Below are positions 3,001 to 62,400 of a stretch of 64,000 nt of DNA, one piece after another; the first letter of the stretch is position 1, and every line of letters begins with the position of its first letter. The position numbers were made by a program, and so were the translations under genes. The notes under the pieces are model-generated. The model was not told the DNA's origin. It saw nothing but the letters and a program-made list of their open reading frames with translations, and did no database searches. Where the stretch lies: IMG/VR virus record IMGVR_UViG_3300035501_000704, positions 1 through 64,000 of that record; one strand, written 5' to 3'. Source of the stretch: a virus. Lineage: Duplodnaviria > Heunggongvirae > Uroviricota > Caudoviricetes.

Positions 3001-6000
3001 TTGATATTTATTGACTTCATTCAATTGTTGTGGGTCATCGGTCCAATCAATATCTGTGATTGTTTTTCCGTCGACCTTAAATCCTTTTGATGGTACATAA
3101 TCATTATCTTGGTAATTCTTTCCATTTAAACCGCTCCCATCTGTAGCCCCAGTCTTTAACATACTGTCAGTCACAATAGGTAAATCTGGCGCGCTATATT
3201 CTGATGTTACGGTGTATATTATTTCATAGTCAAGCCCATCATCGCCAGTATATCTTCCCCATTTATAATCAGTGGCTTCGCTTGAATCAGTTTCATTGTT
3301 ATCTGTATATGTACCAATGAATTTCCCAGGTGCTTCACCATCATGTTCACTAAAATATGATGTCAAATCATCGTTTGTTACGATATATATAGTTTCATTA
3401 AGTGTATTTGACGAAATTACGGCTGAATTAGCCCATTTTGTATGAATATATACACTATCACCAGAATCACCCTTTACAGAACCTGCGTTATACCATTTAT
3501 GTGAAGGGCATTCTGTTCCATATTTATCAAAATCAGATGTAGTTATATCTTGAGATGATTCTTGCCATATCCACATTTCTCCATTGATAATCCAAGCATC
3601 ACCGTCATTTGGTTTAATGGTTTCATTGTAATAAGTTTCTGTTGCACTTTTATCTATATAATTTTGATATTCACCCCAATTCGATTTTGCGAATAAATCT
3701 TGATAACTATCGCAAGTTCCCTTTGTTGTTAAACCAGTTCCAGTTGCTCCTTTTTCACCTGTTTCTCTTATATATGACCAGTCACCAGTTTGAGGTTTGT
3801 TAATTGAAGATACTGCTGGTGTTACCTCTCTTACTCGTCTCCATAAATATTTTCCAGATGTTCCTTGTCCTGGTGCTGTTGTCTCCCAATCTTGTTGCTT
3901 ATCATATGTATTTCTTTGTTCTGATTCAGACATTATTAGTATATCAAGCCATTTGTATTGTGTCTCATTATATTTTCCGTCTTTACCTTTGTAATTATAC
4001 AATGGGCATATATTAGTACTACTAGCTTTTCCAACAAAATTTTGCCATTCACCATTTACTTTTTTTCGCGTACACATAAATTCATATGGATATTCGTCAC
4101 TAATACCTGTAGGGTTATCAGTCCAAGTAGTTTGCTCGTCATATTCATTGTATTCTGTTAATCCTGATGTACCAGCTGATGTTGGTGGAATATAATCATC
4201 GTCTTTGAATGTTTTACCTGAATTTTCAACACATTCTTTTTCTGTGGGAACATAATATGGTACGGCGTTTGTTTTCAAACGATAAACATATTCATATCCA
4301 TATCCATCATCGCCAACAAATTTTGACCATGTATATGCGCTATATACTTCATCATATACACCATTAGTATTAGGTTTATGAGAATCTGCTAATACACCAA
4401 TGTACCTTGTGTCATCTTTCGGAGTTTCTGATACATCGTCTGCTTCAGGATATAGATTTCCATTACTATCTTCATGTAAAATACTAGCATATCTTATATG
4501 AAGATATACACTTTCTCCGCTTTCACCTTTAAATTGACCACAATTAACAAAATGGTGTTTATCAGGGAATGTCATAGTCGCTCCAGTACATTCCATAGCA
4601 TCTGAAGAATTACTCCACGTATATAATGTACCATCAATAATATAACAATCTCCATCAATAGGTTTTACTTTATCATAGTCATCCTGAGTTTTATCTTCGC
4701 CATAATAAGTTCTATAGTTATTTAAGCTTGCCAATGCATATAATTCATCTAAAGAATTTAATGCTGACTTAATCTGGATTGATGTGCCTTCAGAGCCTTT
4801 TTCACCAGTGATTCTTATATATTCCCAATTTTCATCCCAATCCTTTGTTTCAGAATGATATCTCTTTTGACGCATCCACATGTAATAGCCAGTTGGAAGT
4901 GCGTGTAATATTTGAGTTGAATCTATTCCTACTTTTTCTTTTGCTCCTGATATTGTATCGCTCCAATCATTATCATTTTCGCTACAGATTGTTTCACTTT
5001 GGTTAATGAGATATTGGTATTTATTATAACTACCTTCAAGTCCTGTTATTTGAACTGGGTCAGACCAATATATTACATGACCATGACTATCAAGTTTATA
5101 ACTTCCTGTAGCTCTATTTGTGCTACCATCAATCACACAAGTAGACATATACCATATATCATTATCTGATTCAGGGCCATCATGCCAGCCTGAATTTCTA
5201 TTAACCAACTCTAAGAATTCATCATTATCTTCATTAATTTCATATTCTTCTTTAATAAGGGCTTTAATTTCAGATTCAGTCATTTCGACAAAGTTTGGTG
5301 TCTCAAAGGTTGGAGATTCTACTGTGTCACCTTCCTTAAAACTTTTGAAACAGTAATTATTATAATTACCATTCTTACCATTTTCAGATTTTATCTTAGT
5401 GATAGTCCAACTTGACCATGTTCCATAGATTGATTTAAATGATGTTGCCATCCATGTATCTTCACTTGTTCCAACTTCATGCCATCCATAAGGTTGTTCT
5501 TCTGATTCTACTTGTGTTCCATGATTTTTGGGTGTACCTGGCGTTTTATCATATTTGCAATAGCAAACATCAAAGTTTGCACTATCTGCCATTAATGAAG
5601 GTTCACTCCATGATGATTCTTGTGGTGATAACCCATCACTTGTGAATGTTCTATGGCTTTGATATATAAGTGAATAATTCTCATCAGTTAATGCAGGAAT
5701 ACCATCATACCAACCATTTGGAACTGGATTTGAATAACTGCCTCCTGTAGGTTTACTTGGCCCATTTGTAATACTATTCCAACGTCTGAATACTGTTGAA
5801 ACAAATACAGATTGTCCCGATGCACCAGCATTAACAACAATAGGATTACTCCAATAGGTAGTTCCAGTTATTTTGCCTTGTTCATCATATTCAAAATCGC
5901 CAATGGCTTTATTATCATCACCAGATATGGTTGCTACTGAATACCACCATGTACCATTACCTGTAGGTCCATCTTGCCATCCAATATTTCTTTCGATGTA

Positions 6001-7143
6001 CTTATCATCATTTTGATATGATGAATGTGGCGTTGTTTGTTGAATATATGCTTTTACTGTATCATCACTCTTATCAACAAATTTATCAGGGTCATTTATG
6101 GTTGGTGCATCAACACTTGAAGCAGATGATTTCTTATAGATTGTATTTCTATAATTTCCATTGGAGCCATCTTTACCTTTTTCTCCTACAATAGGAAATA
6201 CATTCCAACTTCCCCAAACACCATTACTTTTAATAGACATGGCCATCCAATTATCTCCAGATAATGCATCATTATGCCACAAGCCATCATTTTGTTCACC
6301 ATGTGTCGTAGGTGAATTTGGTGTTCCTGATTCAAGATAACAGAAACATACATCAATATCAGCCGAATCCATTGCTTTAAATGGGGTTGACCATTCATCA
6401 TCTTGTGGGTATAATCCGTCACTTGTAAATTTTCTTCTTGAAGACCATAAAAAGCCTTCTCCACTTTCAGGAATTCCATCGCTCCATCCTTGATTTGTAG
6501 AGCCGGAAGGAAGTCCAGTGTCATAGCTACCACCAAGAGGTTTATCAGGTTTTACTGTGCTTCTTTTAAAGATGGTTGATACATAAATACCTTGACCAGC
6601 CAATCCTTCATCTTCATTTGCAATAACGATTGGAAAACTCCAAGAGTATTCTTTGGATTTAAACGTTGTTGTAAATGTAAAGATTGAATCACTTACAGCA
6701 TTTTCAGGAATTGTTAATTGAAATTGTAATGTGTCATCTGAGATGATATGTTTGACATTTGCAATTATTTCACCTTCATATGCTACTTGATTGTAATATG
6801 AATATGAATAAGTATCAATACTATTGTCTTTTCCAGGCTTCAATATAATATCTCCATATTGAACAACTACAGTAGCAATCACAACTTGTGCTACAGGCTT
6901 CTTTGTAACATATACAATTGTAGGTGATATTGATGCAGTAAGTTTTGTCGTATTATCAACTATTGTACTACCATCAAATCCATTTGCCTTTAATTGTGCT
7001 ATGGTATTTTCAAGATAAATCATTCTTGATTTTATCTTTTCAAAGTTTCTTAAAATTAAGTCTGCAACATATTGACCAGTTTCACCGTGCTGAATCTCTT
7101 CAAATTCTATATTTTCAATTTCTGAGTTAATGTATTCGGCCAT
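1..7143 (-). CDS. Giant tail-fibre-like structural protein. Start codon is present; the 3' end runs off the window (more than 2380 codons visible)
   Basis: ATG at 7143–7141 on the reverse strand. The minus-strand frame read by eye stays open to position 1. It is absent from the ORF track because there is no stop inside the window. It shows recurring fibre-like motifs (W..WMA.S.K..G.WGSW...GEKG.DG) and an internally duplicated C-terminal module. Confidence 0.7.
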   Translation of the reverse strand, partial: MAEYINSEIENIEFEEIQHGETGQYVADLILRNFEKIKSRMIYLENTIAQLKANGFDGSTIVDNTTKLTASISPTIVYVTKKPVAQVVIATVVVQYGDIILKPGKDNSIDTYSYSYYNQVAYEGEIIANVKHIISDDTLQFQLTIPENAVSDSIFTFTTTFKSKEYSWSFPIVIANEDEGLAGQGIYVSTIFKRSTVKPDKPLGGSYDTGLPSGSTNQGWSDGIPESGEGFLWSSRRKFTSDGLYPQDDEWSTPFKAMDSADIDVCFCYLESGTPNSPTTHGEQNDGLWHNDALSGDNWMAMSIKSNGVWGSWNVFPIVGEKGKDGSNGNYRNTIYKKSSASSVDAPTINDPDKFVDKSDDTVKAYIQQTTPHSSYQNDDKYIERNIGWQDGPTGNGTWWYSVATISGDDNKAIGDFEYDEQGKITGTTYWSNPIVVNAGASGQSVFVSTVFRRWNSITNGPSKPTGGSYSNPVPNGWYDGIPALTDENYSLIYQSHRTFTSDGLSPQESSWSEPSLMADSANFDVCYCKYDKTPGTPKNHGTQVESEEQPYGWHEVGTSEDTWMATSFKSIYGTWSSWTITKIKSENGKNGNYNNYCFKSFKEGDTVESPTFETPNFVEMTESEIKALIKEEYEINEDNDEFLELVNRNSGWHDGPESDNDIWYMSTCVIDGSTNRATGSYKLDSHGHVIYWSDPVQITGLEGSYNKYQYLINQSETICSENDNDWSDTISGAKEKVGIDSTQILHALPTGYYMWMRQKRYHSETKDWDENWEYIRITGEKGSEGTSIQIKSALNSLDELYALASLNNYRTYYGEDKTQDDYDKVKPIDGDCYIIDGTLYTWSNSSDAMECTGATMTFPDKHHFVNCGQFKGESGESVYLHIRYASILHEDSNGNLYPEADDVSETPKDDTRYIGVLADSHKPNTNGVYDEVYSAYTWSKFVGDDGYGYEYVYRLKTNAVPYYVPTEKECVENSGKTFKDDDYIPPTSAGTSGLTEYNEYDEQTTWTDNPTGISDEYPYEFMCTRKKVNGEWQNFVGKASSTNICPLYNYKGKDGKYNETQYKWLDILIMSESEQRNTYDKQQDWETTAPGQGTSGKYLWRRVREVTPAVSSINKPQTGDWSYIRETGEKGATGTGLTTKGTCDSYQDLFAKSNWGEYQNYIDKSATETYYNETIKPNDGDAWIINGEMWIWQESSQDITTSDFDKYGTECPSHKWYNAGSVKGDSGDSVYIHTKWANSAVISSNTLNETIYIVTNDDLTSYFSEHDGEAPGKFIGTYTDNNETDSSEATDYKWGRYTGDDGLDYEIIYTVTSEYSAPDLPIVTDSMLKTGATDGSGLNGKNYQDNDYVPSKGFKVDGKTITDIDWTDDPQQLNEVNKYQWAARRFKENGLWTKWYGSATENNTTKAYFYNNFGESVVDVRTTPSTYVFYKDSDGSITPEEVSVTVSASKDGVLLTIEEVSIPSDIQCNVTTTNDLPANNANLKIKPTGNIKQESFGFDVTVQKTSAETATYKQVFSYSVVSDGEQGEPGSGLTFNYGFDRDIQITEDINGDFDLSWAFSLLKVYENGVDVTDKITDSYNNVGKISITSAQISYSYGSNQVELNDAIKYTTNVEIDNKTVPGIKITEIKDKSITGGTAYAEFKYNGKAYRTPVSWRVTYLKGIYETIEGNVKTTVITDFDSKISDVNGKIETIENTYVKTETATGWTESINTVKETAESALTKSNETSNTVDGFSQKIENAVSTANSATAQCASFSTSIDGITSRVSKTEENISGATTKISELKQTVDGLTLNSEQITENTKKIASLQSTVDGFSSEIYSADLDTNLLPGSDFSRNKSLPIFSTSSSSSDNKSHGTGFISIKDGFNNTFAYKCNMHCGGTSDHCGISVSYKYYSTVDSSYNIQLISGNTYTLSFKYKVLSASSGLTENNKLNTNVALVVSMTHKEAKDSETKLECKYTDKSGNSKSTSIVYYYPHSDEFNYGKPEIGKWYTYSITFEALCNFYEISITNLAANLPTGDYVSLIAKPYLEEGETFTGWKENEQITRGNLLTDADTLSGATNSSYSSGFTIGKYDDYGNNYIEVNEKNNTNYHVLNFNSITQQNTNRTDYTLSFYSKIISGSSSNYSFKIQILCWDDDWNRLDLNDQTFIESSFPYSFDEYDNPNFNAIICSSEWYRYYFHFMSPINTKYITINILPALNVDVCITKPKLEKGVGITDFTADSNDITDYKSYTKSQIKQTSTELSSRIEENEEKFSELKQTSTELSSRIEENEENFSELKQTVDGLTLNSEQITENTKKIASLQSTVDGFSSEIYSADLDTNLLPGSDFSRNKSLPIFTISGNSESHSNYGTGFISIKDGFNNAFAYKCNMHCSNSEENCMI
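23..322 (-). repeat. Copy A of an about 300-bp intragenic direct repeat (a duplicated fibre module), about 93% identical to copy B at 1505–1802
   Basis: Long identical runs (23–100 matches 1505–1581; 139–322 matches 1619–1802), with a 40-bp divergent patch in between. Confidence 0.85.
313..437 (-). repeat. In-frame tandem duplication of about 63 bp x2, encoding a 21-aa coiled-coil-like segment (TSTELSSRIEENEE[K/N]FSELKQ)
   Basis: Two adjacent near-identical 63-nt units, 313–374 and 376–437. Only one unit is present in repeat copy B. Confidence 0.8.
1505..1802 (-). repeat. Copy B of the intragenic direct repeat
   Basis: See copy A. Confidence 0.85.
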
Positions 7144-7296
7144 TATCAATCATTCTTTAATATAATATAAATAGACAACAAATCATAATTTTTCTTAAAT
7201 AAATGATGTTTATTTTCATATTTCTTGTATGATTATCAATAAGATATTATATTTGCATCGTTAAACAATTAACTTCAAATTTAAATATTAAATATC

Positions 7297-7809
7297 ATGT
7301 CAGTTAAAGTATCATTCGTTGGACGTTTAGGAAAGGATGCTGAATTTCAGAATTCCCCAAACAACAATCAATTTATTAGTTTCCATGTAGGAACAAGCGA
7401 TAACGTAAAGAAAGGTGAAGACAATACAACATGGATGTCGGTGTCTGCTGATTACAATCGTTTTAAGAACATGTATCCTTATTTAAAGAAGGGTTGCCTT
7501 GTTCAAGTTACAGGAACCGAACGTTGTGTTCTATACACAAATAATAAGGGAATTTCATGTATCTCGCGTAATGTATCATCTGATTCTATTGAATTTATTA
7601 GAACAGCTAATAGTAATTCAAATACAAATAATAACAATAATCAGCAATTCGCTACTAATACATCAGGTGAATCTATTGTTAATGCCCAAATGAATAATGT
7701 TAACGTAGGGAATGAATCTCAGGCTATTCCTCAGTATAATACACCTGAACCAGCTTATGCAATGGCTGCTCCTACCGCACAAGTGAGCAATGATGACCTT
7801 CCGTTCTAA
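7297..7809 (+). CDS. ssb: Single-stranded DNA-binding protein
   Basis: N-terminal OB-fold motif VSFVGRLGKDAEF and the acidic C-terminal tail DDLPF typical of SSB. Confidence 0.85.
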   Translation: MSVKVSFVGRLGKDAEFQNSPNNNQFISFHVGTSDNVKKGEDNTTWMSVSADYNRFKNMYPYLKKGCLVQVTGTERCVLYTNNKGISCISRNVSSDSIEFIRTANSNSNTNNNNNQQFATNTSGESIVNAQMNNVNVGNESQAIPQYNTPEPAYAMAAPTAQVSNDDLPF

Positions 7810-15163: not shown

Positions 15164-15577
15164 TTATTGAATTACGCCCCAAATATTCGTGGGTAATATG
15201 TTTGTTCCTACAGACGCTACAGGTCCAGCTGCATTTGCACCATTGGATTGAATGGTTAATGTTGAAGCATCAATGCCTCCTTGAATAACAGCATCCTCTG
15301 TTTGTGCTCTATAAATTTCCTTTAATGTTTCATATACAACACTAACAATAAGATTAGGGCTTCCATCAGGATTTGCTGATGTTGGTATTCCTAAGTTTTC
15401 CAATGAAACACATATATTATTCAAAGACCGTAAAGGTGATAATCCTTGTCTTGTCTTTGCACCAGCAATCAATAAAATTGCTGGCATTTGTGTAACCTGT
15501 GTAACTTTATTATTTATACTTGAAATAAAGTTATTTATTTGATTTGTTATTGCGTCAATTGTCATAATTATCAGCAA
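15164..15577 (-). CDS. Hypothetical structural protein
   Basis: 137-aa ORF overlapping the upstream gene by 7 nt, which suggests coupling. Confidence 0.5.
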   Translation of the reverse strand: MLIIMTIDAITNQINNFISSINNKVTQVTQMPAILLIAGAKTRQGLSPLRSLNNICVSLENLGIPTSANPDGSPNLIVSVVYETLKEIYRAQTEDAVIQGGIDASTLTIQSNGANAAGPVASVGTNILPTNIWGVIQ

Positions 15578-18021
15578 TTATTCGTGTTAGGTTCAATATT
15601 ATCAAGAATATCAGCATAATTACCTTCAGCAAGTATTGCGGCAATTTCATTGTCAATATCTGTATCAGATGATTTTTTGCTTTTTCTTCTCTTTAATCGT
15701 TTCATTAACTTCTTATAAGCGTTAATGAGCAATTTCAATAAATCAATCCATTTTTTAGCATATTCAAGACTTAATAATTTAAGATATGTGCTCATAATGA
15801 TATTGATTCTTTCGAGAATCATTCTTAATAACTCTTTTTGAATAGATTCAACGATTTCTCTTACAGCTGCCTTAATAATACCTGATACTGCGCCAAGAAT
15901 ATCCTTAATTTCAAATTTAAAATTCTTATCCAATGATAATGGGTCATTCTGCATCAATTTTTGATTGATTTGAATAAGCATCAATACCTTTGGTGTTAAT
16001 ATTGCATTGGTAATCTCAGCTGTCAAGAATTTAATGATTTTATCAATAAATGATGATGTACTACTATCAGAATCACTATCTTCTGTTCCGCCATTATTAG
16101 ATGATGAATTGGAACTACTTGCAGCCGTTTCAGCCTTATTAAGGATATTCTTTAATGCAGTTACTTGTGTTTCAACATCTCCAGATGATTTATAATCAGT
16201 CATCATATCATAAACCTCTGTTATTTCATCTGCATTGGATGAATCAGTAGCAAATATGCCTTGTTGAATCTTATTTACTGTGTTTTGCTCTAATGCTTTA
16301 TAATCATTATTATCAAATGTATAGAAGCATCCTGTAAATTCACCATCAGAATCTCCTTCACTGATAATATTTTGTACCAATTGGTCAATATAATTATCAA
16401 TGTATATTTGGTCTGTATTTGATAGATTACTATTCTTTTTGAAAGGATTGTGTATCTTATAGTTAATATTCATCAAGTCATTAACTATATTCGAAGCAAT
16501 CACTTCCGCATCAAATAACTTAAAGCTCCATATATAATCAAAATTAAATTCATATACAGTTTTTCCAAAATAACATTCTGTTAATACTTTAAAAGCGTCC
16601 GCTCCAGTAATAACATTGCTATCACTTTCAGGATTGTTTGTATTTGTTATTTCACTACTCTTCGCTAAATAGAACTTATGTGATTTTGAATCGAACCATA
16701 TATAACAAATAATATCTTTATCTTTAGGTGAAATGCTATATATGCTTATATTTCCTTTTCCAATTGTATCTGTTGAACTTGTTCCTTTCTTTCCAACTAA
16801 CTTAACGGTATATAGGTTTTCATCAATACTATATTTACCTTTCTTGCTATATTTTCCATATTCATCAAATCTCGCAACACAAGGCTTAATATTGTTGTAT
16901 GTAACATTAGAAGATGTTATGCCTGTTGTTAATCCAGATGCGTCTTCTCCAACAACTTTAGATTCTAATTTATTGATTGTGTTGCCTAAATTATTCAATC
17001 CATTTGTAATACTGGTGACATATCCAATTCCTACTTGAAATGGTTTAGGTAATACCTTGAATGTAAAATTATTTTTAGGTAAATTCGCTAAATCATTATA
17101 ACCATTTGAATAAGATAGATTAAATACAGGTTTCTTTGTTTCACCATTCTTTTTATTCCAATACCAGTTTACGCTATCCCAAGTTGAAGATACTGGTTTA
17201 ATTATATAATAATCATCATGTGCTTCTTCAACCAAGAATATTGTTTGAGATAATTCAGTCTGTTTAAAGGTTGTTCCAACAAGAAATTTTCTATTTTCTT
17301 TTGAATTGAATTTTCCTTTATTTTTATTGTAGATAGAATACAATGTATCACTACTACTTACATTACTAAAATAATCTGTAATGTTATTGCCAATGATATT
17401 AGGATTCGCAAATCTACCACTTGTCTTTACGAACCATATAAATGCATTCATATCTGTATGGCGAGCCAATGAATACAATGGGTCATTTTCACTATCTACG
17501 GTATAATTATACTTACCAATTTCTGAATAAGGAGAAACGCCTAATATTCCTCTTGGGTCAATTTCTTTTTCATTCAATATAACACCTTCTGTTCTCCATG
17601 AGTCAGGAATGGTCGGGTCGATACTACATGAAGTTAATTCCTTAATATTGGCGAGTAATACGGCTTTAACAGAATATTCCAATGCTGGCAGATTGTATTT
17701 CAAATACATAGCTAGCCATTCAATGATTGCATCTTTACTAATATCAACCATCTCCAATAAATGTAGTAATAAATCATTGGCACTTGTAATTAACTTATTT
17801 ACCTTAGATAATAGATTATTTGCTGCATTGGCAAGTTTTTGCTTTCTCTTTAATAATTGGGCTTCAAATTTGCTTGATGTTCCTTCTATTTGACTTTGGT
17901 AATAATTTGCATCATAAGTGAGTTTACTCTGTGACTTATTAAGATTAGCTAAGACATCTTGAGAGAATATCTTAGCCGCACCAATTTGACCGTATATTTC
18001 ATTTGTATTTGTTGTCGCCAT
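15571..18021 (-). CDS. Large hypothetical virion protein
   Basis: 816-aa ORF in the structural block. Confidence 0.55.
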   Translation of the reverse strand: MATTNTNEIYGQIGAAKIFSQDVLANLNKSQSKLTYDANYYQSQIEGTSSKFEAQLLKRKQKLANAANNLLSKVNKLITSANDLLLHLLEMVDISKDAIIEWLAMYLKYNLPALEYSVKAVLLANIKELTSCSIDPTIPDSWRTEGVILNEKEIDPRGILGVSPYSEIGKYNYTVDSENDPLYSLARHTDMNAFIWFVKTSGRFANPNIIGNNITDYFSNVSSSDTLYSIYNKNKGKFNSKENRKFLVGTTFKQTELSQTIFLVEEAHDDYYIIKPVSSTWDSVNWYWNKKNGETKKPVFNLSYSNGYNDLANLPKNNFTFKVLPKPFQVGIGYVTSITNGLNNLGNTINKLESKVVGEDASGLTTGITSSNVTYNNIKPCVARFDEYGKYSKKGKYSIDENLYTVKLVGKKGTSSTDTIGKGNISIYSISPKDKDIICYIWFDSKSHKFYLAKSSEITNTNNPESDSNVITGADAFKVLTECYFGKTVYEFNFDYIWSFKLFDAEVIASNIVNDLMNINYKIHNPFKKNSNLSNTDQIYIDNYIDQLVQNIISEGDSDGEFTGCFYTFDNNDYKALEQNTVNKIQQGIFATDSSNADEITEVYDMMTDYKSSGDVETQVTALKNILNKAETAASSSNSSSNNGGTEDSDSDSSTSSFIDKIIKFLTAEITNAILTPKVLMLIQINQKLMQNDPLSLDKNFKFEIKDILGAVSGIIKAAVREIVESIQKELLRMILERINIIMSTYLKLLSLEYAKKWIDLLKLLINAYKKLMKRLKRRKSKKSSDTDIDNEIAAILAEGNYADILDNIEPNTNNC

Positions 18022-27808: not shown

Positions 27809-29038
27809 TTAAAGACCAACTATGCTCTTGTATAACTTAACTCTATCCTTGCAAACATTCTCTAACGAATATCTCTCAATTACCATCTTTCTTAAATTAT
27901 CCTGCATCTTTGTAACCACGTCAGGATTTTCAACCAAATATTTAATATACTTTGCCCACTGCTTATGGTTTCTTGATGGGTCAACCAATAATGCATTACC
28001 TTCCTCATTCACTACATTTCCCTTCTCCAAATATGGTACAAGGTCAATAGTATATGGGCCGTAATTCTCCGCAATGATGGCTGTTCCTGTAAAACCTGCT
28101 TCAATTACCTTTAATTGGCTCTTAACATAATTAAAATCATTTTCCTTTAATGGGGCTAACAATACGTCTACATTTTCATAATGTGTTCCATATTTTGAAA
28201 TATCTCTCGTCCAGAATCGTCTATAAAAATCATCCTTAAACGGGTCATCCATTCCCTTAACATATTGCTTCAAGAATGATATGTGTTCAGGATTCATACC
28301 TTTATAATTATTTGTAAGATATTCTTCATATCTACACCAAATGGATTCATATGGGGCAATATTTCGTCTTGTAACCTTACCTGTCTTATTATCATAAATG
28401 GTAGTTGTTCCATTTGTATCAAAACCACAAAGAACAATCTGCATCTTATTTCTAACCTCTGTAGGAAGCGAATCAAGCGCTTGAATCATTTGAATATCCT
28501 TCATGTGAGTTGAGCCACAAACCAATCCAAATCTTAGAATAGATGATTTGTTTTTCTTACAAGTGAATTGCTTATCATTTATATCAATGGCATTAGGAAC
28601 AACAACCACATTCTTATTATACCTTTTTAGCTTATTAGCGAACAGGGGTGTTGTGGTTGTAACACAAGTTGCATTTTCAAGATGCTTTACAACACTTTCT
28701 GACCAATGTTCCTTTTGAGATGTGATATACATAGGATGGTCTGGCCCAAGAATAAAATGGTCATCAATATCCAAAATTGTTGGAATGTTCAAGAATTTAA
28801 TTACATCCATAATCTTCAACTGATTATCCAACTGCTTATGAAATTGAATCAAATCATATTTTGATAAAAAAGATGACAAATCACTCTTAGGGAAATCCTG
28901 CAAATAAACAATATCTATATCAAATTCGTCCTTATAATGCTCTTGAATATAGATGTGTGGGTCTCCCTCTCTGAATTTATATACTCCTGTATAATCATCA
29001 GGAACGACAAGCATCTTTATTTTCTTATTTTCTTCCAT
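27809..29038 (-). CDS. GT-B fold glycosyltransferase (GT1/GT4-like)
   Basis: C-terminal E-x7-E-like LKVIEAGFTGTAIIAENYGPY. The 409-aa length is also typical. Confidence 0.45.
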   Translation of the reverse strand: MEENKKIKMLVVPDDYTGVYKFREGDPHIYIQEHYKDEFDIDIVYLQDFPKSDLSSFLSKYDLIQFHKQLDNQLKIMDVIKFLNIPTILDIDDHFILGPDHPMYITSQKEHWSESVVKHLENATCVTTTTPLFANKLKRYNKNVVVVPNAIDINDKQFTCKKNKSSILRFGLVCGSTHMKDIQMIQALDSLPTEVRNKMQIVLCGFDTNGTTTIYDNKTGKVTRRNIAPYESIWCRYEEYLTNNYKGMNPEHISFLKQYVKGMDDPFKDDFYRRFWTRDISKYGTHYENVDVLLAPLKENDFNYVKSQLKVIEAGFTGTAIIAENYGPYTIDLVPYLEKGNVVNEEGNALLVDPSRNHKQWAKYIKYLVENPDVVTKMQDNLRKMVIERYSLENVCKDRVKLYKSIVGL

Positions 29039-29221
29039 ATATTATTATATATTCTACAATTTATTGCTTTATATATAATATATAATGTTTTTTAATCATA
29101 TTTCAAGTCTTTTTACAATAAAAATGATGGAAATCGTATTTTTTTTACAACTTCCATCATCTGATTATGTTTAACAATAATTACTTGTTAAAAAATCATG
29201 AGAATATAACCAAAAACAAAA

Positions 29222-29995
29222 TTACAAATTAAAAATCAATTTATTTGGATATCCTACCGTATAATCATAAGACTTCAATGCTTCCAATGTAGTTAAAGTC
29301 TTAACTTCTGTCTTATGCTTTGCTGTGACATTGTAACATTCAAGTGCATAAACCTCAATTTCACTCAATATCTTAATTACATCATCACACTTCAAAACAA
29401 TACCAGTATCACCCAACCATAATGTAGTTGTTTCATTTCCCATTGACTTTGCAATCGTTGTGGAGTTCATAAGGCCAACTCTTGTTGCTTTATCCAACCA
29501 CATATCTGTGCCATTGAACGAGAATGAATTAACCTCTTCGCTTGAATCATATTTATTGATTGCTCTAAGTAATTTAATCTTCTCACTCTCGACAGTCTCA
29601 TCAATATCAATGTTCAATTGCTTACAAATAGATGTTGCGACTTGCTCTGCAAATTCAACCCAATTTGCCATTCTTTGATAAGCTTCATAATCTTCATCAG
29701 AATTTTCCTTATTAAGAATCAACAATACTTGGTCATTTCCTGAATATCGCATCTCAATAATTGCAGCTAAAATATCTTCATAAGTATTTAATTCTGCAAC
29801 CGGGAATGAAACATTATCCTCTGAACAAACAGCAACCTTATAAGCATTGAAGCTTCTAACAGCCAAATCAGATAAATCAATATCCAATTCCATTGTGCCA
29901 TCTTTCAAATCAATAGGCATTTCTAAACCTACATTAGCCCCATTCAATAAGAATTTACCAGGCTCAGCATATATTTTGTCATTTATTGTGTACAT
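29222..29995 (-). CDS. Hypothetical protein
   Basis: 257-aa ORF. Confidence 0.45.
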   Translation of the reverse strand: MYTINDKIYAEPGKFLLNGANVGLEMPIDLKDGTMELDIDLSDLAVRSFNAYKVAVCSEDNVSFPVAELNTYEDILAAIIEMRYSGNDQVLLILNKENSDEDYEAYQRMANWVEFAEQVATSICKQLNIDIDETVESEKIKLLRAINKYDSSEEVNSFSFNGTDMWLDKATRVGLMNSTTIAKSMGNETTTLWLGDTGIVLKCDDVIKILSEIEVYALECYNVTAKHKTEVKTLTTLEALKSYDYTVGYPNKLIFNL

Positions 29996-30016
29996 TATAT
30001 ATGTAAAAATTAATTA

Positions 30017-31354
30017 TTATTTATTGCTTACGGTTCTACCTAATATCTTCATATAAATATCAAGATTTTTAGATTTTAGAACCAATTCTTTATTTATTTT
30101 CGCTTTTAACTTAGCAATGCATGTCTCTTTTGAATTATGTTTTCTTAAATTATCATCAGAATCGCAATATTCCTTATAGATTGATACCTTGCTTAGATTA
30201 TCATTTGCTATATATAAATATTTAAAAATGAATTCTGAGTTTTTCCATTTGGTGAAAATCTTCGCTCTTATATTAAATGAGTTTCTATGTACCATAAATC
30301 CTAAATACGAATTTAATGTTGAAGCTAATTTATGAATAAGTTCAATATCATTTGGATATTTCTCGAATTCTTCCTTATATTCATCCAATTTATTATACAA
30401 GCTACCAACTGTTCTACTAATAATATATGTTCGATTAGGTTTGATAATTGTGCCAATAAATTGAATGCCCTTCGTTATATCTTGCATATAACATTTATTT
30501 GGATGTAATGTGACACCAAACTCTTTAACTTTCTCCATTATTTTCTTTCTACAATCTTTTAAAAATTCTTTATCTTGAGATATGATAAAGAAATCATCGA
30601 CGTATCTTCCATAATATTTACAACCTAACTCTTCCTTAACCCAATGGTCAAAATCAGAAAGATAAAAATTTGCAAATATTTGAGAAGTTAAATTACCGAT
30701 AGGAAGACCATGATAATCATCACAATAAAACAATGATTTATTCGTTGGTAATCCTTTCCACATATATTTAGGCTGCTTGAACACACAAGACATTGTTGGA
30801 TTATTAAAAACAACTCTATTGATTAACCATAAATTATATTCCAAATCTCTTTCGTTGAATTTTCCTGATTTAGTGAGGAAATTCTTTAATTTATCAAATA
30901 ATATATTTTTATCAATAGACATGAAGAATGATTTTAAATCACATTTAAGAATATATGCTTTCTTTGTATAATTCTCTGTACATTCCTCAATTTGTCTCTT
31001 ACATTGAAGCACACCGTATTCAACTCCTTTATTATCCCTACAAGAATATGAATCATCAATAAAATTATTTTCAAACAAATCATTGGTTCTACCAATAATT
31101 AAATGATGCACGATTCTGTCTCGAAAATCAGCAGCAAATACTTCTCTCTTAACAGGCTTTGTTACAATAAATGTAATACTCTTACCAATTTCATAGGTTT
31201 TACTATTCAAGTCAACCCATAACTTATATAATAAATTACATTCATCTATCTCAAATTTCATTGCATTTGCCGTTTTTCTTTTATGCCTCTGACAATCGTG
31301 GTATGCTGCCACTAATTCTTCAAATGACACGTATTCCTCGGTAAATGTTTTCAT
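30017..31354 (-). CDS. Diversity-generating retroelement reverse transcriptase
   Basis: RT motifs: FAADFRDRIVHH (domains 1/2), LPIGNLTSQIFANFYL with the DGR-specific I-G-x-x-x-S-Q, and the catalytic YVDDF. TR/VR pair immediately upstream. Confidence 0.9.
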   Translation of the reverse strand: MKTFTEEYVSFEELVAAYHDCQRHKRKTANAMKFEIDECNLLYKLWVDLNSKTYEIGKSITFIVTKPVKREVFAADFRDRIVHHLIIGRTNDLFENNFIDDSYSCRDNKGVEYGVLQCKRQIEECTENYTKKAYILKCDLKSFFMSIDKNILFDKLKNFLTKSGKFNERDLEYNLWLINRVVFNNPTMSCVFKQPKYMWKGLPTNKSLFYCDDYHGLPIGNLTSQIFANFYLSDFDHWVKEELGCKYYGRYVDDFFIISQDKEFLKDCRKKIMEKVKEFGVTLHPNKCYMQDITKGIQFIGTIIKPNRTYIISRTVGSLYNKLDEYKEEFEKYPNDIELIHKLASTLNSYLGFMVHRNSFNIRAKIFTKWKNSEFIFKYLYIANDNLSKVSIYKEYCDSDDNLRKHNSKETCIAKLKAKINKELVLKSKNLDIYMKILGRTVSNK

Positions 31355-31470
31355 AACATTCTATTGAATTTAAATGTTTATTATAATTTTTCCACATAGG
31401 GTATTTTTTTTAAATAAAAGATATTAGCTTACAATTTTATTTACAATTTATATTTTCTTCGAGGATTTCC

Positions 31471-31708
31471 GAAGAGCTGGGGGGACCCTCCCCTAAACCA
31501 AACAAACAACAAACTACTAATAATAGAAACTAAAACGGGAAACAACCCTCGCCTCACACGGCGAGGAAAGCTCGCACATAATTGCTATTGTTCTTATTGT
31601 TGTTGTTGACGTTACCACTATTAGTATTCACGTTCCAAGCATTGTTGGACGAATTCTCGGAACTTGACCAGTAATTGTTACCTGTATTCAACGTAACAAC
31701 GGACAACG
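31471..31708 (-). repeat. DGR template repeat (TR) plus shared downstream segment. The mutagenic part is about 31583–31687
   Basis: 238 nt homologous to 33280–33519. Adenine-rich on the coding (minus) strand, with AAC codon runs. It overlaps the listed 107-aa ORF 31554–31877, which is judged non-genuine. Confidence 0.9.
31547..31566 (-). other. GC hairpin (cctcgcc-tcacac-ggcgagg) in the TR copy
   Basis: 7-bp perfect stem with a 6-nt loop in an AT-rich context. The identical element overlaps the stop codon of the VR gene. Confidence 0.6.
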
Positions 31709-31900
31709 TTGTGCCAACTAAATAATTTATTAACACCATATCAAATAAGGTGTGTGGCACCCTTTTCAGATTATACCTCAAAGACTCATTTCCGCAGCAA
31801 TTAAATCCGTTTCCCATGAGACTTATATAACTTTTCGAGTTATATTTTTTATAGACAATATAAACTGCAAACAACATTGTAAACTAATCTCTTTTTTTTA

Positions 31901-32533
31901 TTATCCTTCTATCTTTTTTGCAATATTATTCTCTTTTTCGATTTCTGCTTTAATCGAATTTCTAAAAGAATAAATCTGGCCTAAGACACAACCAATTCTC
32001 TTAGTTAATTCAATAACGTGACTTTTAGGCGCAGCGTTAATAAAATCAAAAATACAAATATAATTTTCAATATCACGCATGGTTTCCATTGCTTCATCAC
32101 TCTTACTGAGCTTCTTATGCTTATTTGCTTCATAATATACAGAACTGTACTGATTTAAAGCTTTCATAAGCAATTTCAAGAAATCATAGCCATAAGCTTC
32201 CTTCATATTACGATTCATGGAATTAAGCATAATTGCAGCATATTTAATCGTGTCTTTAATATCAACATAAATCAACGTATTAAAAGCCTTACGAGTATTC
32301 TTACGCTTTATCTCATTATATTCATCTTCTGATTTAAAATTCTTATCAAAAAGATTTTTCATTTTCTCTTCAGTATTCTTCTTTACTGAATCATTACCAT
32401 TACTAACAGCCTTAGCAATAATATTTCCATCAGGAAGCTTCTTGCTATCCTTATTGTATGATGAGTTCGTCCCCACCAACTTTTCAAGCAGTGAGTTAAT
32501 ACTCATATCTGCTAATTTATGATTATTTATCAT
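31901..32533 (-). CDS. Candidate DGR accessory variability determinant (Avd-like)
   Basis: Lies between VR and TR as expected for avd. It is Lys-rich and basic. At 210 aa it is longer than typical Avd. No sequence motif confirmed. Confidence 0.35.
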   Translation of the reverse strand: MINNHKLADMSINSLLEKLVGTNSSYNKDSKKLPDGNIIAKAVSNGNDSVKKNTEEKMKNLFDKNFKSEDEYNEIKRKNTRKAFNTLIYVDIKDTIKYAAIMLNSMNRNMKEAYGYDFLKLLMKALNQYSSVYYEANKHKKLSKSDEAMETMRDIENYICIFDFINAAPKSHVIELTKRIGCVLGQIYSFRNSIKAEIEKENNIAKKIEG

Positions 32534-33236
32534 AATCTATAAAAATTTAAAAATTATTATTTTATAATCTATATGGCATTTTATTTACCTCTAATAATAA
32601 ATATCATCAATGTTCAAAAAATTCAACTACATTGCGATATTTTTTAAATAAAATGTAATATTTTTTTTATATTACAGAAGATAATACTATTTTTATATTA
32701 TCTATTGTGTAATCTGTTTCAATTACGAACTGTTATTTTCCATTATAAATTCCTTTATATATAATATACTAAATAAATAGTATTTTTCAAGTGTAAAATG
32801 CTAATTTTATGAAACTTTTTTCTATCTAAAATCATTATAAATTTATAAAGTGTTATATATCAATGATATACAAAATGAAATTATAGTAAAATTTTTTTCT
32901 TATTTAATAGATTTTTTCTGAATTTTATGTTTTAAATGGTGTAATTTCGCTTATTATTTATTACAATGTTTGTTTTATTCGTTTATTTTCGCAATAAAAA
33001 CAAAAAAATATGCTTATGTAAAAATACACAAGCATATCTAACTTTTACAAAAATATTTTTAGCACTTTACAGCTCTTGCTTACAGATTTAGCACATTTAC
33101 GCGATTTTATCGGGTATTAAAGCCTCAACGAGACATTGCAAATGTACTAAAATAAATCCACAATCTCAAGTAAATCTACGATTTTCTAACATAAAGTGTG
33201 GATAATTTAAGGAAATTTTATATAAGAACTAATATC

Positions 33237-33258
33237 CCCGCTCCGTTAAGGAGCAGGG
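33237..33258 (-). other. GC-rich hairpin just beyond the end of TR/VR homology
   Basis: cccgctcc-gttaa-ggagcagg: 8-bp stem with one mismatch inside a long AT-rich intergenic region. Confidence 0.4.
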
Positions 33259-33279
33259 ATGGTATGAAGTGGCTAAGCT

Positions 33280-33519
33280 GAAAAGCTGGGGGACCCTCCC
33301 CTAAACCAAACAAACAACAAACTACTAATAATAGAAACTAAAACGGGAAACAACCCTCGCCTCACACGGCGAGGAAAGCTCGCACATAATAGCTAGTGTA
33401 CTTATTGGCGAAGTAGTTGACGTAACCACTAAGAGTAAGCACGTACCAAGCATAGCTGGACGAATGCTCGGAACTTGACCAGTAAAGGTTACCTGTAATC
33501 AACGTAACAACGGACAACG
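33280..33519 (-). repeat. DGR variable repeat (VR) at the 3' end of the target gene. The variable part is 33391–33495
   Basis: Identical to the TR except for about 20 substitutions, all at TR coding-strand adenines, plus a 3-nt length difference. Confidence 0.9.
33355..33374 (-). other. GC hairpin overlapping the target stop codon (candidate cruciform downstream of the IMH)
   Basis: cctcgcc-tcacac-ggcgagg. It encodes the terminal ...FLAV* residues. Confidence 0.6.
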
Positions 33520-36500
33520 CCGGGTACTTCTTCGCAATCGCCGACAGTATGGTATTCAGCCTACCCATTCTTGGAATGATGTATGCCAATTCTCCGATAG
33601 CGGGAAGATACCAATCACCCTGTTGAGTGCCGACAACGCCTTCATCACCTGACACGTGATAACGCCAGCAACAACATGCGGCAGGATAATAGTTTGCCCC
33701 CGAACTGTTCTTGATGGTCTCAGCCAGATGCCAGTACATTTGCGACAACGCATAGTTGAGAATCTTCTCCGTATTACCAGCGCCATCCAAATCGCCACAA
33801 GAATTATTTGTAGTGTTCGCATCGTAATATCCTGACGCTCCTGACGCTAAGTCCGTCTCGTCCCTTGTCTCTGCGGATGCGTTGGTATAATAATATGGAT
33901 TCGGATAATCCGTCATCGTTCCGTCCTTTATAAGGTAAGGATTTTGACAAGCACCTGAAATTGAAGTGGTAGTAAAATCACGGTAGTAATACAAATTATC
34001 GGCATACGTTCCTTCCGTATTGTGGAACGTCAGATTTCCGTTATAATTCGTTTCGCTACCCATCTGAGAGCTATAATCTCCTAACTTCTTGTACAATCTT
34101 GGTGTTTTATTCTTATTAATAAGTTCAGGAATATCAAGTGTACCATATCCACCCCAAATAATACCACATCTTGAAGTACCACTTGTGCCAGCGTCAGGTG
34201 TGTTGTAACTCATTTCGTTGAGTGACATAATTCGAGCCGTACCAGCATAAGACTTATCCGTACCGCTATAAGATTCATTCGATAATCTTAAAGTATGACG
34301 CTTAGGAACAACACAAACACCGATAGGCAATTTACCAGTTGGGATTTCATCAATGGTTGAAACTAAAGAACCATCAGAGCAATAAATCCATCCGAAAGTA
34401 TCCAAAGCTTTTTCGCCTAAGTAAATGGCTCTTGTAACTGTAAACAATTCATCACCCATTGCGGGAACACTGCCACTTAAAACAGAATCATAAATGGTAG
34501 CTGTAAGTCTAACCGTCTTAATATCATCAGGGAACTTAGCACAAGTTAATCTAATTGAAGCATATTGATAATCTTCATCAGTATTATCCTTCTGATAATA
34601 ACCCATAGTTTGTCCTAAGATATCTGATGTTAAATAATCCTCATCATCAACTGACCAAACAACATAATAAGGTTTATTAACTAATGAGTTAATAGCTAAC
34701 TTATAATCAACCTTCGAATCCGTTGTAATAGAATCCAAAATAAATTCACCCTGAATAGAGGTAGAATTAGTATCAAGTGTTCTAAACGCATGGAAAATAA
34801 TTTTTTTCGAAGGATTATAATAGTTACCACTCTTATCCATAAATTGTGCAGTAAGAGTTACCTCACAATCTTCTGTCATGCCATAGGTACCACTATTAGT
34901 TAATGTAACAGCACTCGTGCTATCACTATCAGGAGTTAATGCCACAAAAGCATTATTATCAACTGACCATGAAACATCTCCGTCAATATCAATAGCATAA
35001 GTTGCTAAAGAATACTTTTCAGATTTCATTGCTTCCAAATCATCGGAACCGAAAATTGTATTATAAGGATTAATAAAGTTAAAGGCTAATCCATCAATCT
35101 CATTATAACCAGGCCAGAATGAATTTATCTTATCGGCAATATTCTCTTCAAAGTCAGTAACATTGATTGAACCAGTCAAAGATAAAGAACTTACTTTACC
35201 TAATACAGTAGTATATAATTCTTTCAATTTATCAGAATCAATACTCCAATAGATATTAGAAATAGAAATTGTCTTTGCAGATAATTCATATTTACTTGTA
35301 TCAGTATTACCGGAAGTATTTCCTGAAGTTGTAGCTGAGGTAGCATACTTTTGAATATTATTATACCAATCAAGAATCCATTGATAATTATATCCAAAAT
35401 AATCATTTGTATTATCAGGATTACCATCACATACAATCGTTATTGATTCAAGGCCTACATAATTTTTCAACAATAACTGTTGCATATTACAATTAGGGGC
35501 CTTATTGATTGTTAACGTAGTCAAAGAAGATAATGACGGTAGTGTAACATTCTTCAAAGAGTTAGATTGTGGAAGCTTAACTTCAGAAGAATGGGTATTC
35601 TCAAGATAAACTGTCTTTAATCTATAATAATTTGTTAAATCAACAGTAGAAGACAATGTTGTAACATTTGACAAATCAAGTTTCTCAATTGTTTGTGGTA
35701 AAGTTTCAATATCAGTAATATTAAATGTTGGGTTTGTACCACCACCAATGAAAGATGTTACACGTTTTGAATTAAACTTTAATGACTTATTAACAACACT
35801 TGGACTAATAAACTTATTAGACCAGTCACCCATATCTGACATATATTCAATACCAACAATAGTAGATGTGTCGGTTGAACCATTGTTAGGCAATGTTAAT
35901 GCCACCTTTCCACCAGGACTCAACAATGTTGGGTGATTCTGCTGATAATTATTCTCGCCTTGCAAAGAATATGCATACATATGTGCTGCGGCTGTTACAG
36001 TAACACTATTATTACCACCACTCAATGCATAACCGAATTTATTCAAACCATTAGAATACATTGCAAATGTTTTCATAAAGAAAACTCTCATCTTAACATA
36101 TTGCTTCTCTCCTTCCAAACAATCACCCATAGACATTGTTATAGGGTTTGAGTTCTTTGAAATGTTAAATGCCTCAACTCCACTTTGATTTAATATTTCA
36201 GCCTCTTCATATAATAATCTTGCGGTTTCATTATAAGCAACAGCTGGGAAATAATTTTGAACAGAGAAATAATATCTATTAAAACATCCCATGATACTAT
36301 CGTTGTCAATAATATATGAAGAGTTTGAACCAAGGCTTGACATTGCTCCAATCATTTTATTCATGATTGTTCTAATTGAAGGAGTGTCTTTGACATTTCT
36401 ATCAATAAAGTCTTGCAAATATACATAAAGCAATGTTCCATAGTATCCACTGTTATTTGCAGTAAAATAATTTACAGTATTACCCTTATCATCCTTATGT

Positions 36501-59422: not shown

Positions 59423-62400
59423 TTATTTGTTGTTATCTAAATATTCTTGCATCTTTTCAGCTGCCATCTTTACATATGTTGTACTTGTTCCTTTCTGAAT
59501 AACAAGCGCACTTAAATATATGGAATTTTTAGAGCTTGTATATCTTTCATATATAGTCTTTTCAGTAATGAAACTGTTAATTCTATATTGTTCTGATAAT
59601 GTTCTTGTATAATAATTTTTCATACCTTCTACAATATTAGAACTATATGATTGATAAATATTATAAGCGTCTGCATCTGCAATCCAATCTGATTTACTGA
59701 ATCTACCACTATTTGGGAATGTAATTGTTGAATCAGATTGTAAATCAGCACCATATTCAACCAAATCCCCAGCCCATCCACAAAGGTCTCCAAAACCATT
59801 ATATAAACCATTTACAGCAGCCCAGAAATGAGGCAATTCAAGAACCTCTCCATTAGGTAATGATAAAGTTGATTGTGTTGCAAAATCCTTATACTTTGTA
59901 TCAAGATATGATGTGAAGGTACTATCTAATGTTCCACAAGCAATGGTCCACGTCGTTCCTGTATATGTCTTACTTCTAATGTATTGAGCCATTGCCATAT
60001 CAGTATTTGTAGAAACGTCATAGGTGGATTTATTTGCATCTATATCAGCTCTTAACAGTTGTGCTTGCGCAATATAATTACTGAATTTCGTGCTACCTGA
60101 TTCCCATATACCTTCATCTTTCCAATAGAAATAATTATGCCAAATACCTTCATCACCATCATTATCATTCAATGTATCATAATCATATACCCAATTGAAT
60201 ATATTCATATTTAAATTAACTCTAACGATAGCTGTAGATGGGATTAACTGTTCAACATAAGGCATTACCTTATCCTGAATATACTTAGCTTGTTCTTGGA
60301 ACTCTGTAGAATAGAAATCGTCACCTTTTAAATAAAAATCAATTTCAATTACCTTAGTATTGATAATCTGATTGGTTACACCATCAGCATTTTCTTTTTG
60401 ATTCACAAAATCATAATTTGAATTTCTACTAATAAATTTACTTGAATCTAAATCATATTTTATCTCATTGCCATTTACATCCATTGTAGTCACAAATGAA
60501 TGTACTTTACCATCCTTATTCAAATATTTAAAGTAATTATATCCATTTGATGAAGTTAATCCACTAAAACCAATACTATTTATTTCTTCCATTGTATCAT
60601 CTGGAGTAGTAAAACAATTAGTATTGATTAAATTATTATCATAAGCGTATTTAAACAATCTATCAAATCTTGATATATATTCATAACCATTATCATAAGA
60701 GAAACATCCACTATGAGGATTATTACCTTTATAGTTATCAACAATTGTATTTAATCTAATATATTCAGAATTATTCTTTGTTAATTGAACCCATCCATTA
60801 GAATTCAATCTTCTTGAATAATCCTTATTAGCTAATTTGAAGTAATTTGTTGCAATAGTCTTATCACTATTACAACTTCCACTAATGAATATCTTTGTTC
60901 CAGAGAAAATAGTTTCACTTTCATTTACCTCTTGTGCTCCTAATGTACCCTTTGATACTCTTTTCTTCTTTAATGCACCACCTTCCCATACAGTTATCTC
61001 CAATCCTTTCTCACTATATCCTCTAATATAGAATGGTTCTGTGTCATCAGGCTGATAATATATCTTGATGATAGTTCCATCAACACATTGAGTTAAATCA
61101 TAAGTAACAGTTTCGCCACTATAATTCTTTGTGTCTATATATTGATTGAAATAATAATCACCAATACTCGTTCCAAACAGTTTGACTACAATCTTAAAAT
61201 AATAATAAATATTATTATTTATTACTTCCTGAGCCAATTCATAAATTCTACCACCAATAACAGCATAATTTGTTGATAAGTCAAGGACATAGAATACAAC
61301 ATTATCTTCAAGAACTGAACTTCTCTGACTTAATAATTCAGATAGATTCTTTACTTGTTTTACGTTTCTATATGTTTCCTTATTTGTTTTTCCAATACTA
61401 TTAGGAATCAAAGTTGAACTAACATCAAATGAATAAGGCCAATAATCAAGCCAACCGCCATTCATTTGATAATACATTCCACCATCATAGATACTATCAC
61501 TATCAAAGTTAGGATATAATCGTCTTTCATTGACTTTATTATCATCATCAATGTAACTATCATCAACATCTCTATATGCTATCGGTAATCCTTGGTATGA
61601 TACATATTCACCATTGATATATGTTTGTGTATTGTAAGAAATCTTCTTCTGTGAATTATAAAAATCAATACTATACATATCATGAACGCCATCCCATGAC
61701 TCCTTGATAGGTTCAACAAAAGCTGTATATTCAGTTATATCAAAATCGTATGGCGCTTTATCTTCAATGTTATAATATTTGCTATAATACTTCTCACCAA
61801 CTCTTGTTGTGTTTAAAGCGTCAAACCATCTCTTACTTCTATAGCCAAATAATGATAATAATGATTCAATAGAATCAATTGTTCCTTTCTTTCTTAATAT
61901 ATAACGAGAATTCATTTTTAATCTCTTCATGAACTCATTGTTAATATTAGGAATGGTATATTCAGTTTGATTGCTATAATCCTTAATAATGTTTTTTACA
62001 CTACCATTTTCAACGTAATATTCCGAACTATCATTATCTTCTGGTACAGATAATAATGTTGGTTTTCCATTCACACAAGCCTGATAGAATTCACCTTCAC
62101 TATAACCATAAGGATAAATTATATCTTGATTATTTTCATAGAATGAACGTGTATATGTATTCCCTGTTTGTAATTCATCCCATTGATATCTTTCATCACT
62201 ACCAATGCTTGCATCCTTATTTTCTTTTACTTCATTTCCTTCAGAATCTGTAAATTTCAATTCAAATGGATATATGGTAGTAGTTTCCCAACCATCTAAA
62301 GATAATGCATCAGTTAAAAAATAATCAGGAATATTTGAACGATTGTCATAAGAAATACTATTCACATTTCCAATGGTATCAATATATGATTTCTCATTAT

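Follow-up and report, generated by a model that had tools for sequence, protein, structure and literature searches.

Why would the last ~45 codons of a phage gene be present a second time, with substitutions, beside a gene for a reverse transcriptase (RT)? The question arises in a stretch of 64,000 nucleotides (nt), positions 1 to 64,000 of the IMG/VR record IMGVR_UViG_3300035501_000704 (Caudoviricetes), which we analysed as a whole and refer to as the window. An initial annotation, made from the sequence alone, had read the two copies as the template repeat (TR) and variable repeat (VR) of a diversity-generating retroelement (DGR). The VR ends an open reading frame (ORF) of 2261 amino acids (aa), hereafter the target, while the TR lies outside it, between a gene for an Avd-like protein and the RT gene. 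We regard it as close to certain that the region is a complete and currently active DGR carried by an uncultivated phage with a low content of guanine plus cytosine (GC).

The pattern of differences between the two copies carries most of the weight. Global alignment of the TR and VR cores in the window gave 18 differing positions, which in plus-strand TR coordinates are 31583, 31588, 31592, 31600, 31601, 31604, 31613, 31621, 31622, 31627, 31628, 31634, 31643, 31645, 31655, 31675, 31676 and 31687. Every one is a T on the plus strand, that is, an A on the coding minus strand, and the VR replaces it, again on the plus strand, with A (11 sites), G (6) or C (1). In length the VR exceeds the TR by 3 nt, a point left unstated in the initial annotation, and the gap was accordingly tried at every position. 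The best placements yielded 18, 19 or 20 substitutions, none of them at a non-A position under any of these placements. The 128-nt TR core contains 46 adenines; 18 sites drawn from it at random would all be A with a hypergeometric probability of 7.4e-10.

These results agree closely with the initial annotation, which had claimed that the repeats differ only at template adenines and that T gives way to A, G or C in the VR. Fifteen of its positions recur exactly, and 31600, 31601 and 31604 take the place of what it gave as about 4–5 differences within 31599–31607. Its further statement that no non-A position differs, made for the core, 31581–31708, holds there. In the wider alignment of 31471–31708 with 33280–33519, which it proposed as a check, two non-adenine differences appear at the far 3′ end, one at 31474 (G versus A) and one of a single nucleotide in a G/C run at 31479. 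Its description of an asparagine-rich template of the DGR design was also accurate, as the TR encodes ...SSENSSNNAWNVNTNSGNVNNNNKNNSNYVRAFLAV and holds 17 AAC or AAT codons (AAY codons).

The same pattern recurs in other samples. The exact RT and Avd-like proteins were found in contigs from at least four other samples, and the TR together with its 3′ extension is 100% identical in the contigs L001, L005, L006 and L007, all from other samples. In contrast to this constancy, the target protein falls into a 90% cluster of seven sequences, among which five different C-termini occur. The five VR alleles carry 18, 19, 20, 19 and 17 substitutions relative to their cognate TRs, and all 93 fall on TR adenines (pooled P about 1e-41). 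A comparison across related genomes or metagenome reads had been proposed in the initial annotation as a check, and the outcome on metagenome contigs, a constant TR and a VR that varies only at TR adenines, is the one expected of a DGR. A search for further alleles with the C-terminal 145 aa of the target returned only relatives at no more than 54% identity. The window's own target protein had no exact match in the protein look-up, and none of the sample accessions turned up in a literature search.

The genes around the repeats point in the same direction. On the minus strand the order is target gene, with the VR at its 3′ end, then avd, TR and RT (Table 1), the RT adjoining the TR directly downstream. 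The 445-aa RT matches RVT_1 (1e-20) and phrog_1423 (1e-87), and its best solved relative is 8ub7_A, the DGR RT of Bordetella phage BPP-1 (2.9e-29). Aligned end to end with BPP-1 Brt it is 26% identical (E=4e-34), with IGNLTSQ set against IGSLTSQ and YVDD against YMDD. Judged from its IGxxxSQ motif and its homology to Brt, the RT is of the DGR type. It belongs to a very large family, with more than 7900 proteins at E<=1e-30, mostly ~50% identical.

A rival history would start from a plain segmental duplication at the gene's 3′ end, followed by neutral divergence, with an RT of unrelated origin (retron, group II intron or defence system) happening to lie nearby. The repeats are indeed direct and 1.8 kb apart, and the RT also matches group II intron, retron and Drt3a models, although more weakly. 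Neutral divergence is hard to reconcile with 93 of 93 differences at TR adenines and with a TR that stays invariant while the VR varies. An unrelated RT would likewise sit poorly with the BPP-1 enzyme as best solved relative and with the DGR-specific IGxxxSQ motif, and an Rfam scan of 29500–34500 found no family, intron and retron RNAs included. We consider this history scarcely credible.

The accessory protein encoded between VR and TR is more divergent. The NCBIfam model DivGenRetAVD aligns to aa 88–186 of this 210-aa protein (model positions 3–101 of 104; E=9.8e-6, 25.8 bits), Pfam and PHROGs gave no credible match to the ORF, and a profile search of the PDB with the protein gave nothing significant. 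Exhaustive HMMER searching recovered three distant relatives only. AlphaFold2 run on the full 210 aa from the single sequence was unusable (predicted local distance difference test score, pLDDT, 47), but aa 80–210, modelled from a three-sequence alignment to which two of the relatives had been added, were predicted to form four helices at a pLDDT of 92.4. In a Foldseek search this model matched best to 2gsc, to BPP-1 Avd (4dwl) and to the Avd chains in the 8ub7/8ube structures of the DGR ribonucleoprotein, at template modelling (TM) scores of 0.7–0.9. The predicted fold suggests that the protein is a divergent Avd. It is basic, with an isoelectric point of 9.2, as Avd proteins are (PMC5758913). 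Its N-terminal ~85 aa form an extension rich in K, N and S, of low confidence in the model and absent from BPP-1 Avd (128 aa); the distant relative P0009 (180 aa) is likewise extended at its N-terminus.

In the target itself, the Pfam family Lcl_C (PF07603) matches aa 2175–2257 (E=2.8e-6, 28 bits). Precomputed Pfam matches to Lcl_C also exist for target fragments from other contigs, and relatives of the C-terminus carry PF07603. Further upstream, phrog_24896 (function unknown) matches aa 173–1171 at 4e-62. The target is probably a tail fibre or receptor-binding protein, and from these family matches its C-terminus appears to be a lectin-like domain of the Lcl_C/DUF1566 'CLec2' type, a candidate ligand-binding surface.

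Is the element still at work? A relic, in which the adenine pattern is a fossil of an element that no longer functions, has to be considered, and one genome alone cannot prove present activity. The comparison of closely related contigs is more telling. The flanks of the window and of contig L009 differ at 2 positions in ~1700 nt, so the two represent one strain. Their VRs share the 5′ half and differ at 11 TR-adenine sites, all within 44 nt (33396–33439) of the 3′ half. Sample 3300036769 yields both L009 and L001, whose VR end matches the window allele, and thus two alleles co-exist there. A single strain with two VR alleles, 11 adenine sites apart, and with RT, Avd and TR intact and identical across samples is not what a relic would be expected to show, and we hold that explanation to be very improbable.

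The direction of transfer can be read from the sister strain represented by contig L011, which is 97.55% identical over 22.3 kb. Its TR departs from that of the window at three core sites that are not adenines and at one further site, in the 3′ extension, and the VR of L011 carries all four of these states; information therefore flows from TR to VR. The extension of another contig, L010, equals that of the L011 TR, which served as its cognate, at every position. We considered whether L010 and L011 might be one strain and rejected this, as they differ by ~6% upstream of the VR. A stable TR beside a changing VR evidently reflects one-way transfer from TR to VR by an active element, as far as sequence comparison can tell. 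The arrangement of the window and L009 alleles, common in the 5′ half and different in the 3′ half, fits a fixed 3′ start with a variable 5′ crossover; in BPP-1, too, the 3′ start is pictured as fixed and the 5′ boundary as dependent on homology (PMC5758913). We also considered that the VR transcript, which has the same 3′ extension, might serve as template for its own re-mutagenesis. This was ruled out, as the changes between the window and L009 alleles do not start from A in either direction.

Taken together, the adenine-only changes, the DGR-type RT, the Avd-like helical bundle, the Lcl_C match at the target C-terminus and the constant TR with its varying VR bear out the TR/VR pairing of the initial annotation. 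Several observations nevertheless weigh against the reading of a complete and active DGR. The Avd match lies below the curated NCBIfam cutoff of 80, and an hhalign comparison of the small Avd alignment with BPP-1 Avd was not significant. The Lcl_C match, made with the full-length target, falls below the Pfam gathering score of 34.9. All alleles come from metagenome assemblies, where a VR may be a chimera of co-existing variants. In addition, the 12 core adenines outside AAY codons are almost never changed (1 of 60 cases), and the synonymous third-position A of ACA and TCA was changed in 0 of 10, for which selection alone offers no obvious explanation. Finally, two alleles with different 3′ halves share an extra codon that is absent from the TR, which needs either recurrent slippage or an unseen TR variant.

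The behaviour of the adenines concerns how the element mutagenises. Across the five alleles, 92 of the 93 changes lie in the 17 AAY codons and one in a GAG, and AAY-codon adenines are changed in 54% of cases. Adenines in AAC context have been described as more mutable (PMC12875486). The single change among 60 at non-AAY adenines fits a combination of selection for the protein scaffold and lower mutability of non-AAC contexts. Ten unchanged synonymous adenines would have P=4e-4 at the 54% AAY rate and P=0.03 at the misincorporation rate of 30% quoted in PMC12875486. This would need context-dependent misincorporation; the sample is small, and we regard this as a minor point.

The extra codon lies inside the (AAC)n tract, at VR 33407–33415 against TR 31599–31607. 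On the minus strand the TR reads GTC AAC AAC AAC AAT AAG and the VR reads GTC AAC TAC TTC GCC AAT AAG. Each codon of the expanded tract except the final AAT keeps C in its third position (NNC, where N is any nucleotide), so that the additional codon looks like an added AAC unit that was itself mutagenised. It is present in two of the five alleles, as TTC GCC in the window and as GGC GGC in L009 (L009:1998-2236), which is of the same strain; the other three alleles have the length of the TR. Because the window and L009 alleles differ across the tract, the extra unit either arose twice or was copied from a longer TR variant that was not assembled. Length differences between TR and VR occur in ~7% of DGRs, mostly in multiples of 3 and mostly beside AAC, and have been ascribed to RT slippage (Wu et al. 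2018, PMC5758913); the same slippage model was invoked in PMC12875486. As a feature, then, the extra codon is already known, with precedent in Wu et al. 2018, and we infer that it is a product of RT slippage on the (AAC)3 tract.

Two other origins have to be set against slippage. In the first, the phage population would include a TR with (AAC)4AAT, of which the longer alleles would be copies of faithful length. One longer template is indeed simpler than two slippage events for two alleles with different 3′ halves. On the other hand, every TR that we recovered (window, L001, L005, L006, L007 and L011) has (AAC)3AAT, including the TR on the same contig as a longer VR, and we find a templated origin rather doubtful. 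In the second, the extra codon, and possibly the window VR itself, would be an artefact of assembly, co-existing VR variants (or VR and TR) having been wrongly joined or merged into a chimera. Assemblies do break exactly at these repeats, the Logan contigs L002, L004, L007 and L008 starting or ending inside the shared TR/VR extension, which is the usual effect of a repeat and of VR heterogeneity on assembly; moreover, the window and L009 alleles are alike in one half and different in the other, as a chimera would be. An artefact would not be expected, however, to place an in-frame extra codon with different sequences (TTC GCC and GGC GGC) in two independently assembled contigs, always in the NNC form of a mutagenised AAC and with the reading frame kept, and such indels are documented in the ~7% of DGRs mentioned above. 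We judge an artefact unlikely, and the less probable of these two origins.

Downstream of the last variable adenine the two copies show no differences for a considerable distance. TR 31480–31582 and VR 33288–33390 are 100% identical over 103 nt, a stretch that spans the stop codon, a shared 7–8 bp hairpin (31546–31567 / 33354–33375) and a GGGGAGGGTCCCC element. The TR/VR homology ends ~82 nt past the stop codon, and its only differences lie in the last ~15 nt (those at 31474 and in the C-run at 31479). We found at the VR 3′ end no sequence for the initiation of mutagenic homing (IMH) that differs from its TR counterpart IMH*, since the 103 identical nt provide no proximal distinction. Identical IMH and IMH* are known from some accepted DGRs, in which recognition must then extend downstream (Wu et al. 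2018, PMC5758913). A GC-rich inverted repeat downstream of the homology is present beside the VR and absent beside the TR (Table 1). This VR-only hairpin is a candidate for the cruciform or stem-loop element that would mark the recipient.

We also examined whether mutagenesis reaches into the extension, where the VR of L005 has an A-to-N change at 33332 and the VR of L011 also has one. Both are compatible with background divergence: the flank next to the VR of L005 shows 5 differences in ~780 nt, a rate that predicts a single change over 110 nt. The TR-spacer RNA (31355–31720, minus strand) has a predicted fold with a z-score of -2.9, in which the TR segment ACUAAUAGUGGU pairs with the extension segment CUAUUAUUAGUA and the very end of the homology is occupied by a TR-only hairpin (CUCUUCG...CGAAGA).

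By analogy with BPP-1, the element may operate as follows. A transcript of avd, TR and spacer would be reverse-transcribed by a complex of RT and Avd, which would misincorporate opposite adenines of the template, chiefly those in its 17 AAC/AAT codons. The mutagenised complementary DNA (cDNA) would then replace the VR, and the putative ligand-binding surface of the C-terminal lectin-like domain of the fibre-like target would thereby be rewritten. Mutagenesis would end at about 31583/33391, given that TR and VR do not differ over the following 103 nt. What tells donor from recipient would lie beyond the repeat, the VR-only GC hairpin being the most likely element.

A more speculative proposal, to which we give only a small chance, extends these details to the clade as a whole. 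Donor and recipient would share a long identical 3′ extension (103 nt here and ~70 nt in the related elements L017 and L018), in which an L011-specific change appears in both TR and VR; discrimination would depend on the hairpin only, slippage would be a regular mode of change, and the RT would obey a context rule. If this were true, homing would depend on long 3′ homology, and the VR-only hairpin beyond the repeat would be the sole means of discrimination. RT slippage on (AAC)3, seen in two of five alleles, would amount to a second mode of diversification acting on loop length, and a strong context rule of the RT would account for the lack of change at synonymous adenines (0 of 10).

Coordinates of the locus are collected in Table 1.

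Table 1. Features of the DGR locus, in window coordinates.
Feature	Position	Strand	Basis or remarks
Target gene, 2261 aa	33362..40147	-	ORF; VR at C-terminus
VR, 131 nt	33389..33519	-	Last codons of target; substitutions and one extra codon
TR core, 128 nt, 46 adenines, 17 AAY codons	31581..31708	-	Alignment with VR
VR copy of the unmutagenised 3′ extension, putative IMH region	33280..33388	-	Last codons, stop codon 33362–33364 and ~80 non-coding nt
TR copy of the 3′ extension, putative IMH* and part of the TR-to-RT spacer RNA	31471..31580	-	Includes shared hairpin 31546–31567
VR-only GC-rich 11-bp hairpin	33234..33260	-	~20 nt past the end of TR/VR homology
AT-rich hairpin followed by T-run, likely intrinsic terminator of the target gene	33006..33039	-	Lies in the spacer between target and avd
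avd-like accessory gene, 210 aa	31901..32533	-	Predicted four-helix bundle, C-terminal ~88–210
DGR reverse transcriptase, 445 aa	30017..31354	-	RVT_1, phrog_1423 and BPP-1 RT homology
107-aa ORF overlapping TR	31554..31877	-	Probably no gene

The TR duplicates the end of the target gene in frame, which accounts for the 107-aa ORF; in one assembly (L007) this ORF was called as a gene, with a weak Lcl_C match. The stop codon of the target is separated from avd by ~830 nt with no ORF of at least 50 aa. Within this spacer, 32534–33233 is ~700 nt of AT-rich, ORF-free sequence, the best sigma-70-like match of the region lies at 32863–32834 (11/12), and 33062–33143 holds five of the few differences between samples.

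The phage around the element has few annotated relatives. GC content of the window is ~30%, and no tRNA genes were found in it. Pfam and PHROG matches among the window proteins are very few, comprising SbcC/SbcD-like proteins, a primase, glycosyltransferases and a weak tail-fibre match adjoining the RT. A megablast search of 29000–35000 against the INPHARED phages gave no nucleotide match, and scans of a viral contig collection with the RT protein and with a 35-nt pattern gave none. Pattern scans of a metagenome contig collection were also without match; this collection evidently does not contain the relevant samples, as contigs from the Joint Genome Institute (JGI) that carry the sequence exist. 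An apparent ORF gap at 1–7300 proved to be no anomaly, since a giant minus-strand ORF of at least 2383 aa (1–7149) exits the left end of the window and hence was not listed. Elsewhere, a 1477-aa ORF at 59423–63856 is without Pfam or PHROG match, and an 816-aa protein (15571–18021, minus strand) has a weak HORMA-domain match at aa 573–663 (E=8e-4, below the gathering score) and is otherwise unannotated.

The locus is a natural and clear-cut case of DGR hypervariation, here of a very large fibre-like protein in a phage with almost no annotated relatives, and its several co-occurring alleles are direct evidence of activity. Its modest value lies in three details, namely the in-frame gain of a codon at an AAC tract in two alleles, the 11 differences confined, within one strain, to 44 nt of the 3′ half of the VR, and the identical IMH and IMH* accompanied by a VR-only hairpin. 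All three bear on how DGR cDNA starts and integrates.

The closest known systems include the mtd-avd-TR-brt cassette of Bordetella phage BPP-1. The two share the gene order of target, avd, TR and RT, RTs whose homology extends from end to end and includes aligned IGxLTSQ and Y(V/M)DD motifs, and an accessory protein with a (here predicted) Avd fold. In both, the VR lies at the C-terminus of a receptor-binding-type phage protein, differences from an AAY-rich template are confined to adenines, and downstream of the VR, but not of the TR, there is a GC-rich inverted repeat. The target here, however, is 2261 aa long with an Lcl_C/DUF1566-type domain, whereas that of BPP-1 has 381 aa and an Mtd-type lectin domain. 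The RT has 445 aa with a C-terminal extension, compared with 328 aa in BPP-1, the Avd carries the ~85-aa N-terminal extension, and ~830 nt separate the target stop codon from avd. Unlike in BPP-1, homology runs 82 nt past the stop codon, with 103 nt identical and no proximal IMH/IMH* difference.

The target places the element near the DUF1566 or 'CLec2' DGRs (Wu et al. 2018, category d, with the Legionella DGR as its example), in which the VR likewise overlaps a weak C-terminal DUF1566 (Lcl_C) match (PMC5758913), although the Legionella-type variable protein is a bacterial lipoprotein and the present one a giant phage-borne fibre-like protein. The cassette has the B1 architecture, with avd as accessory gene and the order avd-TR-RT. 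Among deposited phages, the closest RTs are those of Bacteroides phages F1, F2, F4 and BS-TP1 and of uncultured gut phages; RT identity to these is low, at 36–42% over ~87% of the protein, and there is no nucleotide match to any INPHARED phage.

Nearer relatives are uncultivated. L019 and L020, with RTs 63% identical, come from a second phage in the same samples (JGI 3300035502, SRR11793810), from which no VR was recovered. In L019 (1–450) the TR is homologous and has the same (AAC)3AAT AAG tract, and its stop-codon hairpin shows a compensatory change from C-G to A-T (CCTAGCC/GGGTAGG, against CCTCGCC/GGCGAGG here). L017 and L018 (RT 53% identical) have a target, a 143-aa ORF at the avd position, a TR and an RT, and the same TR occurs in two samples with different VRs. 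Beyond the last variable adenine their TR and VR agree fully over ~70 nt, and 25–30 nt further on there is again an 11-bp GC hairpin beside the VR only, a design (L017:4290-4425) like that of the window, although both the target (512 aa in L017) and the extension are shorter. Set beside these systems, the element is a canonical phage-borne DGR; as a kind of system it is nothing new, and its minor variations are known.

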